Position numbers and translations under genes: made by a program | Part shown: piece by piece, positions 26,895-41,585 of the stretch | Numbering within the stretch: position 1 is the first letter of the stretch | How the letters are laid out: each line of letters starts with the position of its first letter | The notes under the pieces: generated by a model | Databases searched by the model: none | Told to the model about the DNA's origin: nothing | The model's input: only the letters and a program-made list of their open reading frames with translations | NCBI GenBank assembly: GCA_030295235.1 | Contig: AP026133.1 | Coordinates: 558,001 to 622,000 of the forward strand | From: Fistulifera solaris | Taxonomy: Eukaryota | Direction: 5' to 3' | Length of the DNA: 64,000 bases

Positions 26895-27581
26895 ATGACT
26901 GTCGCCCAACGACACCAGTTCTCTCTTATCTTGGCCATGTTGTGGAGGTTATTAATTGCGAGAGGAACAGTAGCTTTTTCGACCGCCGCTAATCCTCTTC
27001 TCAAGTCTTCACCCCATTTCTTCCGTGTCACTGGAAACGGCTGGTTAGTAAGGCTGCAACGTACCGCTTTTCTTCTCTCCGAACGAAGCGATTCCTTGAA
27101 TTTCCGCTTGTATTCGAGTACAACCCCTCGCAACAACAACAATGGCAGCAACAATCACGACAATTGGAAAGTTCCCGAATACATTGATATTCCCGAGGAA
27201 AACTTGGATTTCTCGTTTGTTCGATCTTCTGGTGCCGGCGGTCAAAATGTGAACAAAGTCAATTCGCAAGTCCAGCTCCGACTAAACGTAAACGAAGCCT
27301 ATTGGATCCCATACGAAGTGCGACAACGACTGATGCAGCAACAAGCCAATCGGATCAGTAAGGAAGGTGTGTTGACGATTGCGGCACAAGAGCATCGCAC
27401 ACAAGTGGCCAATCGCAAGGCCGCCATACAAAAATTACGCGACATGTTGTTGCAGGCGTGGCCTCGACCCAAAGAGCGGCGTATACGTCAGGGTATTTCG
27501 ATCAAAACAAAAGAGCAACGCAAAGAATTTAAACGTCGAAGGAGTGATGTGAAAGCAGGAAGAAAAAAGGTCGATTTTTGA
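26895..27581 (+). CDS. ICT1: Codon-independent peptidyl-tRNA hydrolase, ICT1/ArfB (YaeJ) type, with organellar presequence
   Basis: FVRSSGAGGQNVNKVNS (GGQ motif), HRTQVANRKAAIQKL and a basic C-terminal tail. Start codon uncertain. Confidence 0.88.
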   Translation: MTVAQRHQFSLILAMLWRLLIARGTVAFSTAANPLLKSSPHFFRVTGNGWLVRLQRTAFLLSERSDSLNFRLYSSTTPRNNNNGSNNHDNWKVPEYIDIPEENLDFSFVRSSGAGGQNVNKVNSQVQLRLNVNEAYWIPYEVRQRLMQQQANRISKEGVLTIAAQEHRTQVANRKAAIQKLRDMLLQAWPRPKERRIRQGISIKTKEQRKEFKRRRSDVKAGRKKVDF

Positions 27582-30114: not shown

Positions 30115-30789
30115 ATGCTGAGCAACCGTCTACGTCAAATACAACGCCAAAGCATTCGGGCTTTCAATTCCGAGGCAAAAATTTGGAATGTTTACCTTTC
30201 GGGTGAGTCGAGCTAAAGTCATTTTTGGGCAGCATGTCTTTGCCAAAGCAAGCAACTCACGTCAATGCCTTCTTTGCTCTGCCAACATCAGGCGAGATTC
30301 ATTCCGACTGGAGAAGTGTCATTGCGGAAGGACTGCAAAAGAAAAAATCTGCCCGTGCGACTAACTTCGCCGAACCTCATTCATGAAGACAGCGACGATT
30401 GTGGTGCCATCATTCTTGGTATGCAAGAAGAGCGGCCAAGCTGGGATCGATTGGGAGCGAGAATGAATGATATTCGTAACAAAACCTTGCTGTCCCAAGC
30501 TGATATCGTTGTGGTGCGCTTTGGAGACAAATACCGTCAATGGAATGCCGCATTTGATGCCGGGTATGCGGCGGCCTTGGGCAAACCTTTGATTACGTTG
30601 CATCCACCGGAAATTTCGCATATGCTCAAAGAAGTCAATGCTTCTGCTAATGTTGTCTGTGAAGAGCCAGAACAAGTAGTACAAACACTGGCTTATGTTA
30701 TTTTGGGAGAGTTACCTACAACACCAAAAGATGGCGATCGTTTTGTACCCATTGCCGATCGACTCGGCAAGGGAAATCCGAATCCGTAA
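30115..30789 (+). CDS. YtoQ-family protein (nucleoside 2-deoxyribosyltransferase-like fold) with mitochondrial-type presequence; intron 30203-30291, frameshift ~30345
   Basis: Spliced WNVYLSGEIHSDWR, then HEDSDDCG, VVVRFGDKYRQWNAAFDAGYAAALGKPLI and HMLKEV. Presequence MLSNRLRQIQRQSIRAF. Confidence 0.85.
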
Positions 30790-33597: not shown

Positions 33598-34539
33598 ATG
33601 TCGAGTGGTGACGAAACTTACTTAGAATCATTTGTGGAGAGTCTCACAACGTTGCCGTATCAAGTGCGGCGGAATTTGGAATTGGTGCAAGATCTCGATC
33701 GATCTTATCAAAGTGATTTGGCCAAGCTTCAAGAGCTGTACACTGCTTATTTGCAGCAAGCGGAAGAAAAAGTTTTACAACTGGAAGTAGCACCGATGGA
33801 GACTGGTAAAGGAGTCCGCGTCATACGGAAAGAAGATGCCGAAAAGGCACCCATCATCATTCCCACCACGGCCGAACTCATGGCCTACACTTACGACGCC
33901 GACGCTATGCGTCAAATCGAGGCATTACAAGCCGATTGCTTGCAAAAGGCAGATGAAAAGGTATGTGTTGCACGGCAGGCATACGAATGGATTGACGCGG
34001 TAGTGGAGCGACTCGACGATGACTTGCAGGCGCTTTCGAAAATATTACAAGCGCAAGGAGAATTTCAACAGGAAGAGGTAGCGCAACCGAACGACTTGGC
34101 CGCGTGTCAATTGGGAACCGAATGGATTTTGGCCAAGGTATTGGAGTTTGATACAAAGACGAGAACTTATAAACTGGTTGACGAGGATGTCGAAAGCCAC
34201 AAAGGTACAATCGCGTCATCCCCACAGTTGTATTTGTATTTTCAATCGCTCTCTCCGTCCTCATCTTTCCCTCTTATTCTTCTTCTAGTATTTCATTTAC
34301 CAGAAGATCAGGTTGTCATCCTCAGAGGAGTGGATCGTCTGAGCAAAGGTGACACGGTGTTTGCCGTGTATCCGGACACCACTTCGTTTTACCAAGCCAC
34401 CGTTGTACAAGTGCCACGGAAAACAGCCGGTCAGAGTTCGCCGTTTGTCATTGTCAGCTTTATGGATGATTCCGACGAGTTTGGTGTAACTCACGACAAG
34501 ACAGTTCAGTTGCAACACATCATGGTGCCTCCCAAGTAG
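33598..34539 (+). CDS. ING N-terminal coiled-coil domain fused to an SGF29-type tandem Tudor; in-frame intron 34205-34288
   Basis: YLESFVESLTTLPYQVRRNLELVQDLD and ADEKVCVARQAYEWIDAVVERLDDDL (ING-like). EWILAKV...YKLVDED and VFAVYPDTTSFYQATV...FMDD (SGF29-like). Confidence 0.85.
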   Translation: MSSGDETYLESFVESLTTLPYQVRRNLELVQDLDRSYQSDLAKLQELYTAYLQQAEEKVLQLEVAPMETGKGVRVIRKEDAEKAPIIIPTTAELMAYTYDADAMRQIEALQADCLQKADEKVCVARQAYEWIDAVVERLDDDLQALSKILQAQGEFQQEEVAQPNDLAACQLGTEWILAKVLEFDTKTRTYKLVDEDVESHKGTIASSPQLYLYFQSLSPSSSFPLILLLVFHLPEDQVVILRGVDRLSKGDTVFAVYPDTTSFYQATVVQVPRKTAGQSSPFVIVSFMDDSDEFGVTHDKTVQLQHIMVPPK

Positions 34540-34952: not shown

Positions 34953-35938
34953 TTACAGAACAGCACCCGTCAAAGCAAAGAGCACGGCACTGGCAACCGA
35001 CGGTACAGCAAATCGCTTCTCCGAACTACTCGCACCCGCGCTTCCATCCGTGTCGACACCGCACACATTCGGTGAGCAAGGACGCTCCTCACGGAAAGAA
35101 CCCACACACGGTGCACCATTTTCCGAAGGCTTGGGATTATCGCACACACGAAATCGAGATTGAGTGTTTTCACAGCAGGTGTTGTACTCGGTCCATTCAC
35201 CCCATCCTCCGTTGACGACGACTTCACCTCCGCTCCCACCCGACGTCGGTTCTTCACCACCCGAAGTCGGGGTGGTTGGTTCACTCGGAGTTGGTGCCGT
35301 TGGATCACCCATACACACGCCAAAGTCTTCCGCAGCAAATTGAGTTGAGCAACATTGTTCTCGGGTTTCAAAGAGAGTCTGATTCTCGATCGACAATGGA
35401 ACTTCACAAGCACCCGTGGCAACATTAGCAAAGAAGCACTCGGTAGATCCATCCGTTCGTTCACACGGAATGGATTCGGTGGCATCTCCTACACACACAT
35501 TGGCATTGACGGACAAACAAGTTCGAGAGCGCGTATTGGCCAGGTTGCAGCACGGAGTATACTCGGACCATTCTGACCATCCATCGCTGCCGCATTGATC
35601 AAGTTCGCAAGTGAAGGGCAATTCGGAGGGACCCGCACAGAATGTTCCGCCGCCCGATGGTTCTGGATTGTTGCAAACGCGGATCTTTTTAATGAACCCT
35701 CCACAACATATGCCGTCATCCACCCAATCAGACCATCCTCCATTTACAACCTTTTGCAGTCAAAAATTGAGACAGATGAGTTAAAAGAAAACTATAATGT
35801 TCAACGGGGCCGCTTCACTTATATGAAACAAAACGAGAGGGAGAACGTCACACAACGATACTTTCGTGGCGAACAGACGGAACGTACCACCTGTGCTGAG
35901 ATAGAAGCACATCCGGTAATAAGCAAAAGAAGCTTCAT
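34953..35938 (-). CDS. Secreted thrombospondin type-1 repeat protein, probably GPI-anchored; intron 35887-35751
   Basis: Exon 1 MKLLLLITGCASISAQV. Three WxxW...CC...RxRxC repeats, a P/T/S/G linker and a hydrophobic C-terminus without cytosolic tail. Confidence 0.85.
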
Positions 35939-36539: not shown

Positions 36540-38765
36540 CTAAAGAAACCAAGGAGCCTGCTCTTCAACGTAACGTCGATCAAGCGCCCTCATGGTAGGC
36601 TTCATGAACTCTCGGGGACGTTCATCGTCTACTAGAACTAGACGCGCGTCTAGACGAACATGGCGAATCGGTCTCCCGTCAATGTTCATTCTGCAATCCA
36701 TGTCTGCTTCAGGTTCGTCACAATATTCCAAACTAATGTCTTCTTGATCGGCAAATACCTTTACTTTGCGCGCAGGACCACAAGCCGATTGAAGAGCGTT
36801 CTCTGCCAGCATCAGCTGCCAAAACCGACCACCAATGGCGTCCACAGCTAAATGAGCCGACACCCACTGAAAGGCTCCAGCCAATATGGATTGAACACCA
36901 CGGTCACCCCAACAGCCCGCTCTCCACACAACTGTTTGGTAGCCATTGCGCTCTCCCAAATGCTTCATTACATCAACGGGTTCACCCCCTTCTATAGTTT
37001 CAACAACAACACCATATTCTTCAAGTTGCGCTTTCAGTTTCTGCGTTTTTCCGAGTTCGTCTTGAATAAAAGACATTTCCGACTTTGCCAACTTTTCGTA
37101 TTCGATCGCGGCTTGTGCGCACCGTTCGGCGTCTCCGGACTCGATTGCCATGGCGGCGGCTTGTGCTAACTCCGCACATTTGGCTGCGGCGTTGGCAGCC
37201 GCCAAAGCGGCCGCTCTGGCTCGTTCATTCAAACCTCTGCGCAACAAAACTCGGGTCTTTTTGCGTCCCGTGGCTCTCCAGAAAGACTCAACATCGACAC
37301 TTCTGGGTAAATTGGGATCTTTGTTTGATAGTGGCAGCTCTGGTAAGTCTGTGGCGTCCATAACAATGATTCGTTCAACACCCGCAGGCAGCTCTTCACC
37401 ATGGGTAGCTAGCCATTTCAAGCCATTGAGCCGTGCTGTTACCGACGTGTCGTCCGTTGGTCCATTTCCGGCTTTGGGAAATGTCGCAACTACAGCATCT
37501 ACTTGTTCGTACCACGGCATCATAGGAGATCCCATAGTCACAGGATCGCTCTCCAAACTTTCCTCTTCAAAATCAACGTTGAAAAAGTCACCATCATCCC
37601 CTTCGGGTGTGGTATCGGCCCAAATAACTTCCGGTGGCGGAGCGATTTCAAAGCGGCCCAGATCACGGTAACTTAGCTTTTTTCCATCTATTTCGGTACC
37701 AAAGGCATTGCCGTGACGTGCAAACGCCTGCACATTGTCGGACGCGACTACGGAACAGTGCAAGAATCCCAGTGGTCGTTTGAACTGACGAAAGTTATTG
37801 CGTGCCATGCGATGCAACTTGGAATTGGCCAAAATAGCATGATCCTCGATCACCGCTTTGCACAACGATTCACATGCCGTTCCTACAAAAACATCAATAC
37901 CTGCCGCATGCAGAGCGGATGCTCCCTTGAGAGCACGGGATTGAACAGGATCAGCGCAACCGATCACCACCCGACGTACGCCGGTCAATTGAATCAATCG
38001 TGTCATCGGAGGCAGGGCCGTCCCCTGCCTTTCGTTAGATGGCTCCAGTGTCACGTAGAGAGTGGATTGCGACAGTTCCCGACGAAAGGTTTCGTCTTCG
38101 GGCCACGAAACGCACCATTCGGAAAGCGGAGTAATGGATAAGCCCGCGTTTTCGAAGCACGCCCTGACTGCATGTGTGTTGTAATCACTTCTCCCGTGTC
38201 CCATAATCTTGCCTTCCGCGGAAACTAAAACGGCACCAATATCGGGCTGCGGGAAGGGGGATGAATCACTGATTATAATATGTTAGACTTTGGTAGAGCG
38301 TGCACTGTATCCAACGGACACGACTTACCCGGTAATGGCAGCATCGATAGCAAGGTGCATGAACTCCTCATCGCGGGCACTTTGTGCTGGATCGACGGCA
38401 GTTTGCGGCTCCTCCAAATTTTCTAATCTTTCTTCTAGTTTCGAAGCGGGTCCTTCTTCTTTTTTCGTAGAAGTGTCTTCTGCTGGTATGCTCTCCGAAG
38501 TTTCTTGCATACTCTTGGATGCGGCGGTCTCGTCCTTTTCCTCAACAATCTTGTCGGTATTCTTCTTGCCTACAATATCCCCTAATGCTTCCTTCCCCGA
38601 AAGCCCATTGACATCTTCAACGGATTTCTTGGCCATGATTGGCTGCATTTGGACCGCAACATGGAACGGAGTCCGCCGCCAGTTAGAGGGGGTAAAAGCG
38701 AGACTGCAGGTGATCAGCCAAAGGCTAGCAATTAACCCATGGGGTAAAAGAGTGCGTTTCATCAT
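36540..38765 (-). CDS. Plastid-type RibD/PyrR-like protein with degenerate deaminase domain; intron 38328-38269
   Basis: Presequence ends CSLA-F. FMHLAIDAA...PFPQPDIGAVLV...G.G, YVTLEP, RRVVIGCADP and GASALHAAGIDV match the RibD deaminase scaffold. C-terminal VMKHLGER...VVWRAG is reductase-like. Confidence 0.75.
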
Positions 38766-40265: not shown

Positions 40266-41585
40266 CTAAGCGGTGGTCCCCTGACAGCTGGACCCCATAC
40301 CCGCCGTACAACCAAAGCAATGATTGTCGGTGCGAATCTTGTACTCCCGTAAATCAAAGGAATCAATGTCAAAGACCGAAAGATTATCCTTCAGTCCATA
40401 CCCTAGCTGCTGATTGAAATCGCAATCAAACAATTTTCCATCATAACCAACACTCACCAAATCACGACACATCAGCGTATCGAGTGTATCGGCATTAAAA
40501 TTTCGTACCAACAAGTCCATGTAGTCCTTCAGTTCATCGCGTCGGTGCAAGAAATCGGCAAACCGCTTAATCGGCATATTCGTAATGGTAAACAAGGAAT
40601 TGAACAAGATGCCAAAATTCTCTTCCAGTTGTTCCTTGTAAACGGTTTCCAGTTTTCCCTGCTCCGGCGGCAAAAAGGCACCCAAAGGATTGTAGACCAG
40701 ATCCAAACCCAGTGCTTCGTCTTTGCCGTAACCAGCTTCGTTCAATGCCAGCAAAGCCGCAATCGACCGCTCAAAGACACCATTCCCTCGCTGCTGATTG
40801 ACATTCTCTGACGAGTAACAAGGTAGACTCGCAATGACACGTACGCGATGATTTTTCAAAAAGTCAATCAAATCCTCTTGACCCGGCTCTTGCAAGACGG
40901 TTAAATTGCAACGATCGATGATTTCCAAATCGGGCCGCATGGAACGTGCCATGCTGACCAAGTAACGGAATTGCGAATTCAATTCGGGTGCTCCACCCGT
41001 TATATCGAGTGTTTCAATCGAAGGCGTTTTCATAAGCAAGTCCAGACACTGTGCCGCTGTTTCGGCCGTCATCATTTCTTGTTTGCGGAGTGGTGAACTC
41101 TCGACGTGACAATGATCACAGGCTTGATTGCAGTACAAACCAATGTTCAATTGTAAAATGGTGGGTAATTTACGATCAAAGTTGGCAGGTAAGAAATCGG
41201 AAAAGCGTTTGACTCCCAAATCATTGAGAGCGCGGCGACGCAGTGTGCGTTCTTCTTTGCTCATGAGAATGGGTTTCGGTTTAGTAGATGAATCTTCCAT
41301 GCCAGCCAGTGTTTGCTCGACGAGCGATTGTCCAAACAAGTCCTTGCGACGCCATTTTTGGGTCTTTTCGACACGAATCTTGTCAATTTCGACTGGTGTT
41401 TTTCCATAGTCAGGAAAATCGGATCGAGATGTGGAGGAAGTATTGCTACGATTTTCTTGAGTGGAAGATTGCAGTGCACTTGATGTTGCAGAGGTTGTGA
41501 AGAATCGAGCACGTCGTTGAGGGGCCGTGAAGCCGGAAGCCACGGAAAGCCACGACAGTAGTAGCGCCGAGAAAGAAAGCCGCAT
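40266..41585 (-). CDS. arsS: Radical SAM protein of the ArsS (arsenosugar biosynthesis)/DUF3641 family, with plastid-type presequence
   Basis: CNQACDHCHVESSP (CxxxCxxC), DITGGAPEL, IDRCNLTV, ASLPCY, ITNMPIKRF, DCDFNQ and HCFGCTAGMGSSC. Presequence ends VASG-F. Confidence 0.85.
   Translation of the reverse strand: MRLSFSALLLSWLSVASGFTAPQRRARFFTTSATSSALQSSTQENRSNTSSTSRSDFPDYGKTPVEIDKIRVEKTQKWRRKDLFGQSLVEQTLAGMEDSSTKPKPILMSKEERTLRRRALNDLGVKRFSDFLPANFDRKLPTILQLNIGLYCNQACDHCHVESSPLRKQEMMTAETAAQCLDLLMKTPSIETLDITGGAPELNSQFRYLVSMARSMRPDLEIIDRCNLTVLQEPGQEDLIDFLKNHRVRVIASLPCYSSENVNQQRGNGVFERSIAALLALNEAGYGKDEALGLDLVYNPLGAFLPPEQGKLETVYKEQLEENFGILFNSLFTITNMPIKRFADFLHRRDELKDYMDLLVRNFNADTLDTLMCRDLVSVGYDGKLFDCDFNQQLGYGLKDNLSVFDIDSFDLREYKIRTDNHCFGCTAGMGSSCQGTTA

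Follow-up and report, generated by a model that had tools for sequence, protein, structure and literature searches.

The gene and its product

We describe a gene of Fistulifera solaris at 33598..34539 (+) of the window, by which we mean the whole analysed stretch of 64,000 nucleotides (contig AP026133.1 of assembly GCA_030295235.1, positions 558,001 to 622,000). The gene encodes a protein in which an ING-type N-terminal domain is joined to a tandem Tudor of the SGF29 type. The locus can be read as an open reading frame (ORF) of 313 codons running from ATG to TAG. This is the reading frame of the original prediction and its ends stand; as coding sequence the span does not, since it includes an intron of 84 nt. 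The predicted intron (34205..34288, +), with its GT at 34205-34206 and its AG at 34287-34288, is in frame, of phase 1, stop-free and T-rich, and reading through it adds 28 spurious residues within Tudor 1. Judged from its sequence, this is a two-exon gene, with the intron splitting the first Tudor barrel. Exon 1 (33598..34204, +), delimited by the ORF start and by identity with the database protein P0001 up to residue 202, holds codons 1-202 and the first base of codon 203, and covers the ING-type domain, the linker and Tudor 1 as far as its third strand. Exon 2 (34289..34539, +), assigned from the sequence and from identity with the same protein, holds the remainder of Tudor 1, the whole of Tudor 2 and the TAG stop.

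The spliced product has 285 amino acids (aa) and is letter-for-letter identical to P0001, which bears the name 'SAGA-associated factor 29 [Fistulifera solaris]' in NCBI and UniRef and in which the splice junction runs from ...DEDVESHK into VFHLPEDQ.... The 28 residues encoded by the intron are missing from P0001, from five other diatom homologues and from 19 other rows of the family alignment A1. In addition, many ORF fragments that relatives have left in metagenomes break here, either ending at query residue 202/203 or beginning at residues 199-204; such breaks fit a conserved intron at the same place in these relatives. The sole sequencing run that contains the stretch (X1) has contigs passing straight through the intron; X1 is therefore probably DNA, and provides no RNA support for splicing.

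The ING-type N-terminal domain

When the spliced protein is compared with Pfam, the ING family PF12998 is matched at 54.0 bits (cut-off 23.9) over residues 8-145 and profile positions 1-101 of 102, the corresponding genomic span being 33619..34032 (+), and the SGF29_Tudor family PF07039 is matched at 70.1 bits (cut-off 23.8) over residues 159-280 in one stretch. The Pfam scores of the unspliced ORF rank lower than these (E 3.4e-14 for PF12998 and 2.9e-17 for PF07039). The ING match spans a long antiparallel two-helix hairpin that bears the ING signatures LP..R....LD and EK..A.Q......LD.DL, and the motifs YLE..LP..RN..DLD and ADEKV..A.Q.Y..ID....RLD.DL, on which the first 155 or so residues had been assigned to the ING type, align to human ING4 and ING5 in phmmer searches of the PDB; that assignment is borne out. 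A PDB search with P0001 alone recovers human ING4 (E 3.4e-10), ING5 (E 1.4e-07) and the human SGF29 Tudor. A profile built from 62 family sequences reaches 73.8 bits with ING5, 73.3 bits with ING4 and 52.4 bits with ING3. The yeast ING-family chains, scored with a 20-sequence profile, lie well below the human ones (Yng2 25.2, Pho23 17.6, Png2 16.4 and Yng1 10.8 bits). The ING signature positions are nearly fixed among the 62 family members: P20 is found in 61, R25 in 62, D34 in 59, E120 in 60 and K121 in 61.

The absence of a Cys4-His-Cys3 PHD finger at the C-terminus, another element of the original prediction, is likewise confirmed, as no PHD family matches the ORF in Pfam even at E<=10. The same holds for the relatives: a PHD finger is found in none of the 150 best representatives of the family, 30 of which were scanned at E<=1 and 120 at E<=1e-4.

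The loop of the hairpin carries an insertion of about 40 residues (residues 61-100; 33778..33897, +), delimited by means of alignment A1, the A3 consensus and the AlphaFold2 (AF2) model. It occurs in the two diatom rows of A1; of the 18 other rows, 17 are without it, and P0256 carries a different insert at this position. The insertion is predicted to form a beta-hairpin at residues 62-75 (AF2 strands 62-67 and 70-75), with a predicted local distance difference test score (pLDDT) of 90-95, followed by a conserved PTTEEL-like stretch of the A3 consensus. In some centric diatoms, P0087 among them, the insertion at this loop exceeds 100 residues. Co-folding of residues 1-155 as a homodimer, run without an alignment and without controls, scored 0.00 and carries no weight for or against a dimer like that of ING4/ING5.

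The tandem Tudor and its histone-contact residues

The C-terminal half was predicted to be an SGF29 Tudor, and the searches agree with this. The PF07039 match corresponds to 34072..34521 (+), a span interrupted by the intron, and the motifs WILAKV and YPDTTSFY align to human SGF29 (phmmer, PDB). Profiles of the family score 81-89 bits against the human SGF29 Tudor, and the 62-sequence profile scores 40.9 bits against yeast Sgf29.

According to the available part of one report, the human SGF29 mutants D194A, D196A, Y245A and F264A lose H3K4me3 binding (PMC10630320), and the accessible part of another describes the methyl-lysine site of SGF29 as three aromatic residues together with Asp266 (PMC4589357). 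In the profile alignment, human D194, D196, Y245, F264 and D266 correspond to diatom D195, D197, Y237, F260 and D262, respectively. Diatom Y230 sits at a position that we take to be that of human Y238. D195 and D197 make up the H3A1 pocket, and Y230, Y237, F260 and D262 the methyl-lysine cage. These residues are conserved in nearly all of the 62 family members (D195 in 62, D197 in 61, Y230, Y237 and F260 in 62 each, and D262 in 54), and D263, beside D262, is present in all 62. Because all six contact residues are conserved, we infer, on good grounds, that the Tudor would read H3K4me2/3 together with the free N-terminus of H3, as SGF29 does at active promoters.

Predicted structure

An AF2 model built on the family alignment has a mean pLDDT of 90.9. 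It consists of a helix at residues 21-60, the beta-hairpin at 62-75, a second helix at 101-152 and two Tudor barrels, and the helices exceed a pLDDT of 90. When the model is compared with the PDB by Foldseek, the 11 best matches are all SGF29 Tudor structures, the best of them human SGF29 (E 4.3e-09). VIA-align places human SGF29 at Z 13.8, with a root-mean-square deviation (rmsd) of 2.8 Å over 122 residues, and yeast Sgf29 at Z 13.0. As for the hairpin, ING3 is matched on residues 11-142 at Z 8.6, with an rmsd of 2.7 Å over 95 residues and 23% identity. Because many unrelated helical hairpins match the N-terminus of the model at Z 8.5-9.9, similarity of fold is not diagnostic by itself; the identity to ING3 (23%) is the highest among the helical matches listed.

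Comparison with the N-terminus of canonical SGF29

The outcome named beforehand as fatal to the ING assignment is that the N-terminus might be the ordinary coiled coil of SGF29. For the comparison we used a set of canonical SGF29 proteins made up of 17 proteins from streptophytes, among them Chlorokybus, a fern and angiosperms, and of three relatives from red algae. None of the 11 canonical proteins scanned, nine streptophyte and two red-algal, has an ING match at E<=10, and a profile of plant SGF29 run against the PDB recovers the SGF29 Tudor and not a single ING chain at E<=10. Conversely, a hidden Markov model of the ochrophyte N-terminus scores at most 6.4 bits on the 20 canonical proteins (hmmsearch).

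Profile-profile comparisons were made with streptophyte SGF29 only. For whole proteins, the Tudors align at 99.8% probability, with an extension of low confidence into helix 2. When the N-termini alone were compared by hhalign, the 62-sequence set aligned helix 2 on helix 2 of plant SGF29 with a score of 25.8 and a probability of 26%; the reversed controls scored 18.2 and 18.4, and none of 80 shuffles reached 25.8. Restricting the comparison to the 18 non-diatom rows of A1 lowered the score to 20.4 and the probability to 5.5%, the highest of 40 shuffles being 22.1. A deep homology between the N-termini of SGF29 and ING, suggested by the first of these signals, was therefore set aside when the signal was lost with the second sequence set, where it fell below the shuffle maximum. 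Since the streptophyte and red-algal SGF29 proteins are devoid of ING signal (0 of 11) and the alignment of N-terminal profiles does not hold up, the N-terminus of the diatom protein is set apart from the ordinary coiled coil: as judged by these comparisons, it is of the ING type and is not detectably the coiled coil of plant SGF29. The two N-termini might still go back to a very old common origin. Animal and plant SGF29 N-termini are probably alike; if they are, the canonical type would be older than the split of these lineages, and the ING type found here would be derived by recombination.

The red-algal proteins with an SGF29 Tudor (P0321-P0323), which come from transcriptomes, have an N-terminus of acidic and basic low-complexity sequence, in which neither a coiled coil nor an ING signal is predicted. 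What precedes the SGF29 Tudor thus varies between the lineages sampled.

Distribution of the architecture

In a collection clustered at 90%, both Pfam domains are found in 103 of the 120 best homologues, ING alone in 12 and the Tudor alone in five; all the organism names given among them are those of diatoms. An exhaustive search of 1.84 billion representatives returned 619 proteins at E<=0.001, the best 150 of which were scanned against Pfam. Thirty of these 150 were selected as probable non-diatoms: the Tudor cut-off is reached in 29, the ING cut-off in 25 and both in 24, and the five that fall short of the ING cut-off have weaker ING matches, of 13.9-18.6 bits. The representatives that could be named include Triparma (a bolidophyte), Nannochloropsis, Tribonema, Vaucheria, Epipyxis, another chrysophyte, Chrysoparadoxa and one foraminifer transcriptome. 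Among the other 120, taken at E<=1e-4, both domains are found in 21, ING alone in 60, the Tudor alone in 36 and neither in three. Most of these single-domain rows are short, and many are broken at query residue 202/203; ten of them, when re-examined, proved to be members of this family whose ING helices are weak or have drifted. A search started from one Tudor-only protein, P0144, reached no further than 34 close relatives. The architecture is thus not confined to this gene or genome but, in the survey of the best 150 of 619 representatives, is the standard form across ochrophytes, namely diatoms, bolidophytes, eustigmatophytes, xanthophytes and chrysophytes. An ESM Atlas cluster labelled as commonest in Chlorophyta (the phylum being known for seven of its 56 members) has PF12998 beside the Tudor in 86% of cases, and is an unverified lead only.

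A side observation concerns the collections themselves. Dozens of metagenome-derived 'proteins' (for instance P0078, P0094 and P0112, or P0164, P0192 and P0204) are half genes broken at query residue 202/203, probably through prokaryote-style ORF calling that stops at the conserved intron. Such half genes inflate the counts of apparent 'ING-only' and 'Tudor-only' proteins.

With regard to prior description, no paper on the ING/SGF29-Tudor architecture was found in the literature searched, supplements of bioRxiv preprints lying outside the search, and the available part of a 2022 preprint on the evolution of eukaryotic chromatin makes no mention of SGF29. The combination of domains is already recorded in automatic annotation: JGI uses the label 'SGF29 tudor-like domain/Inhibitor of growth proteins N-terminal histone-binding', and in NCBI one orthologue goes by 'Inhibitor of growth protein 4' and another by 'SAGA-associated factor 29'. 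The architecture is real and conserved and, as far as the literature searched goes, it is apparently undescribed.

Neighbouring features of the window

Convergent with the reader gene, a 119-codon ORF at 34953..35312 (-) opens with a segment rich in Pro, Thr and Gly, continues with a single thrombospondin type-1 repeat (PF00090, 23.1 bits, cut-off 21.6) and ends in a hydrophobic tail; its product may be a small anchored surface protein. The 554-codon ORF at 36540..38204 (-) has, in its first 109 residues, a marginal match (27.5 bits, cut-off 26.5) to Inv-AAD (PF18785), an AID/APOBEC-like deaminase family, and may encode a diatom deaminase of nucleic acids with a long, uncharacterised C-terminal extension. 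Three further single ORFs encode enzymes that look bacterial: a YtoQ-type, nucleoside 2-deoxyribosyltransferase-like protein at 30265..30789 (+; 169.1 bits), an RF-1-domain protein at 26895..27581 (+; 76.4 bits) and an enzyme at 40266..41585 (-) that combines radical SAM with DUF3641 (178.5 bits).

Discussion

The findings are best explained by an intact gene that encodes a nuclear chromatin-reader subunit of 285 aa, made by domain recombination. The original prediction spoke of a reader swap, and the joining of the reader of one family to the docking module of the other is indeed the best description of the protein; the swap may have run either way, with an ING subunit deprived of its PHD finger or an SGF29 acquiring an ING domain.

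ING subunits belong to several complexes, ING3/Yng2 to NuA4, ING4/5 to HBO1 and MOZ/MORF, and ING1/2 and Pho23 to Sin3-Rpd3, and each is anchored there by its N-terminal domain. SGF29 is bound to the GCN5-ADA2-ADA3 module through its N-terminal coiled coil, with ADA3 as the usual partner. The accessible part of a report on human SGF29 describes binding to both ADA3 and GCN5 (PMC10630320). The combination of an ING docking domain with an SGF29 reader would therefore bring Tudor-type H3K4me2/3 reading to whichever complex recognises the hairpin. In our analysis the likeliest host would be an ING-type one, a MYST acetyltransferase complex (NuA4, HBO1 or MOZ-like), a reading to which we give a probability of about 0.45. 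The ING-type hairpin would then be the docking module, as in ING proteins, the SGF29-type Tudor would take over the job that the PHD finger has in ordinary ING subunits, and the protein would deliver H3K4me3 reading to its ING-type host via an EPC/BRPF/JADE-like scaffold with EAF6. We favour such a host because the ING signature is strongly kept, because canonical SGF29 is free of it, and because no ADA3 has been found in the chlorophytes that have 'SGF29'. The last point comes from a survey of about 20 chlorophyte genomes, the available part of which reports ADA3 as not detected and 'SGF29' in six chlorophytes only, in Mamiellales and Chloropicon, and holds no ochrophyte data (PMC7915528).

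Several observations weigh against a MYST-type host. The ING signature is common to ING subunits of different complexes, and may reflect the fold and not the partner. The size and plan of the protein, a two-helix N-terminus followed by a tandem Tudor in 260-300 aa, are those of an ordinary SGF29, and no separate canonical SGF29 that might serve the GCN5 module was seen, the best 150 of the 619 matches all appearing to belong to the same family. In some diatoms (P0210, P0203) the ING score is below detection, so an ING-like N-terminus can drift beyond recognition. For human SGF29, the part of the report available places the coiled coil at residues 3-98 and the Tudors at 160-286 (PMC10630320). 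The chlorophyte evidence is also to be read with care: as far as the accessible part of the survey goes, 'not detected' refers to the survey's own searches for a poorly conserved protein, and the 'SGF29' accessions in its supplement may or may not carry an ING domain (PMC7915528).

Some of the same observations can be turned into a positive case for a plain ochrophyte orthologue of SGF29, acting in the GCN5-ADA2(-ADA3) module of a SAGA-like complex and reading H3K4me2/3 there, which we regard as quite possible, if tentative. The ING-like hairpin would in this case be an ancient docking domain shared by both families, or a domain swapped in with the same docking role. In sequence as in fold, the Tudor is of the SGF29 type, domain order and length agree with what the available part of the human report gives for SGF29 (PMC10630320), and no second SGF29_Tudor family appears among the best 150 of 619 representatives. 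The ING scores of the family, moreover, form a continuous range that falls from 72.5 bits to the absence of any match, and helix 2 was once aligned with helix 2 of plant SGF29 (score 25.8, 26%, none of 80 shuffles). Against such an orthologue, however, that helix-2 signal was not robust (20.4, 5.5%, with a shuffle maximum of 22.1), none of 11 canonical SGF29 proteins has any ING match, and the N-terminus is far closer to human ING4/5 than would be expected of a vertically diverging SGF29 N-terminus; the reported lack of ADA3 in chlorophytes that have SGF29 points the same way, within what the accessible part of that survey covers (PMC7915528). An ING hairpin might also dock on Sin3-Rpd3, as in ING1/2 or Pho23, in which case H3K4me3 reading would bring deacetylation instead of acetylation. 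The N-terminal domain is indeed common to Sin3-associated ING subunits, and the profile matches Pho23 and Png2 weakly, at 17.6 and 16.4 bits, but the scores for ING4, ING5 and ING3 (73.3, 73.8 and 52.4 bits) are much higher, which makes this host improbable, in a comparison limited by the PDB match lists, where no N-terminal chain is named ING1 or ING2. Finally, two neighbouring genes or a mis-assembly might have been read as one ORF. The locus has no transcript support, run X1 retaining the intron and looking like DNA; nevertheless, both domains lie in one uninterrupted genomic reading frame, 103 of the 120 listed homologues have both, including complete transcriptome ORFs of several diatom species, and both pass their Pfam cut-offs in 24 out of 30 scanned proteins, eight of which are named as non-diatom ochrophytes. 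We consider an artefact of this kind highly implausible.

A wider form of the preferred reading, in which the host is a MYST complex, can be formulated, and we think it unlikely. The protein would be a distinct, undescribed subunit whose SGF29-type Tudor serves as a reader in the MYST (NuA4/HBO1-like) complexes of ochrophytes and of Mamiellales and Chloropicon, which are green picoalgae of the sea. The GCN5 module of these organisms would be devoid of the ADA3-SGF29 arm, and the patchy occurrence of the gene among marine algae would be due to transfer between the green and brown lineages and not to SGF29 having descended vertically.

The coupling of H3K4me3 to acetylation has two classic readers, SGF29 with its Tudor for the GCN5 complexes and ING with its PHD finger for the MYST complexes. 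That the two occur as a natural and conserved chimera in a major group of primary producers shows that docking and reader modules are interchangeable parts. The complex with which the protein purifies would tell which half sets the identity of the complex, and by what route promoter methylation is coupled to acetylation in diatoms. From a practical point of view, the annotation 'SGF29 present' in an alga is not by itself evidence of a canonical SAGA acetyltransferase module.

Comparison with known systems

The protein resembles SGF29 (human SGF29/CCDC101 and yeast Sgf29; PDB 3ME9, 3MP1) in the family and fold of its Tudor, in the residues that contact H3, in size and in domain order. It differs in having an ING domain as its N-terminus, a signal from which the tested streptophyte and red-algal SGF29 proteins are free; given this N-terminus, docking on ADA3 is not to be assumed for the diatom protein. 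With ING4 and ING5 (PDB 4AFL, 5ME8), the readers of HBO1 and MOZ/MORF, it shares the two-helix domain, which aligns over its full length, whereas a tandem Tudor stands where these proteins have the PHD finger and diatoms add the 40-residue insertion in the hairpin loop. The same is true of ING3 and yeast Yng2 (PDB 8COK, 5J9Q), the readers of NuA4, which have the same N-terminal domain, while the diatom protein has a tandem Tudor and no PHD finger. Since an SGF29 Tudor and an ING N-terminus are both present, and neither a PHD finger nor a canonical SGF29 N-terminus was found, the protein is more fittingly classed as a chimera of the two than as an ordinary ING or SGF29.

The closest precedent for an interchange of PHD and SGF29 Tudor readers comes from Plasmodium, where, according to the available part of the report, the place of the Sgf29 Tudor in the GCN5 complex is taken by a PHD protein (PMC8396726). 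Tudor and PHD types can thus stand in for each other as the H3K4me3 reader of an acetyltransferase complex. The exchange in Plasmodium falciparum is the opposite one, a PHD for the Sgf29 Tudor, and its reader, PfPHD1, is a separate large protein that is not fused to an ING domain.

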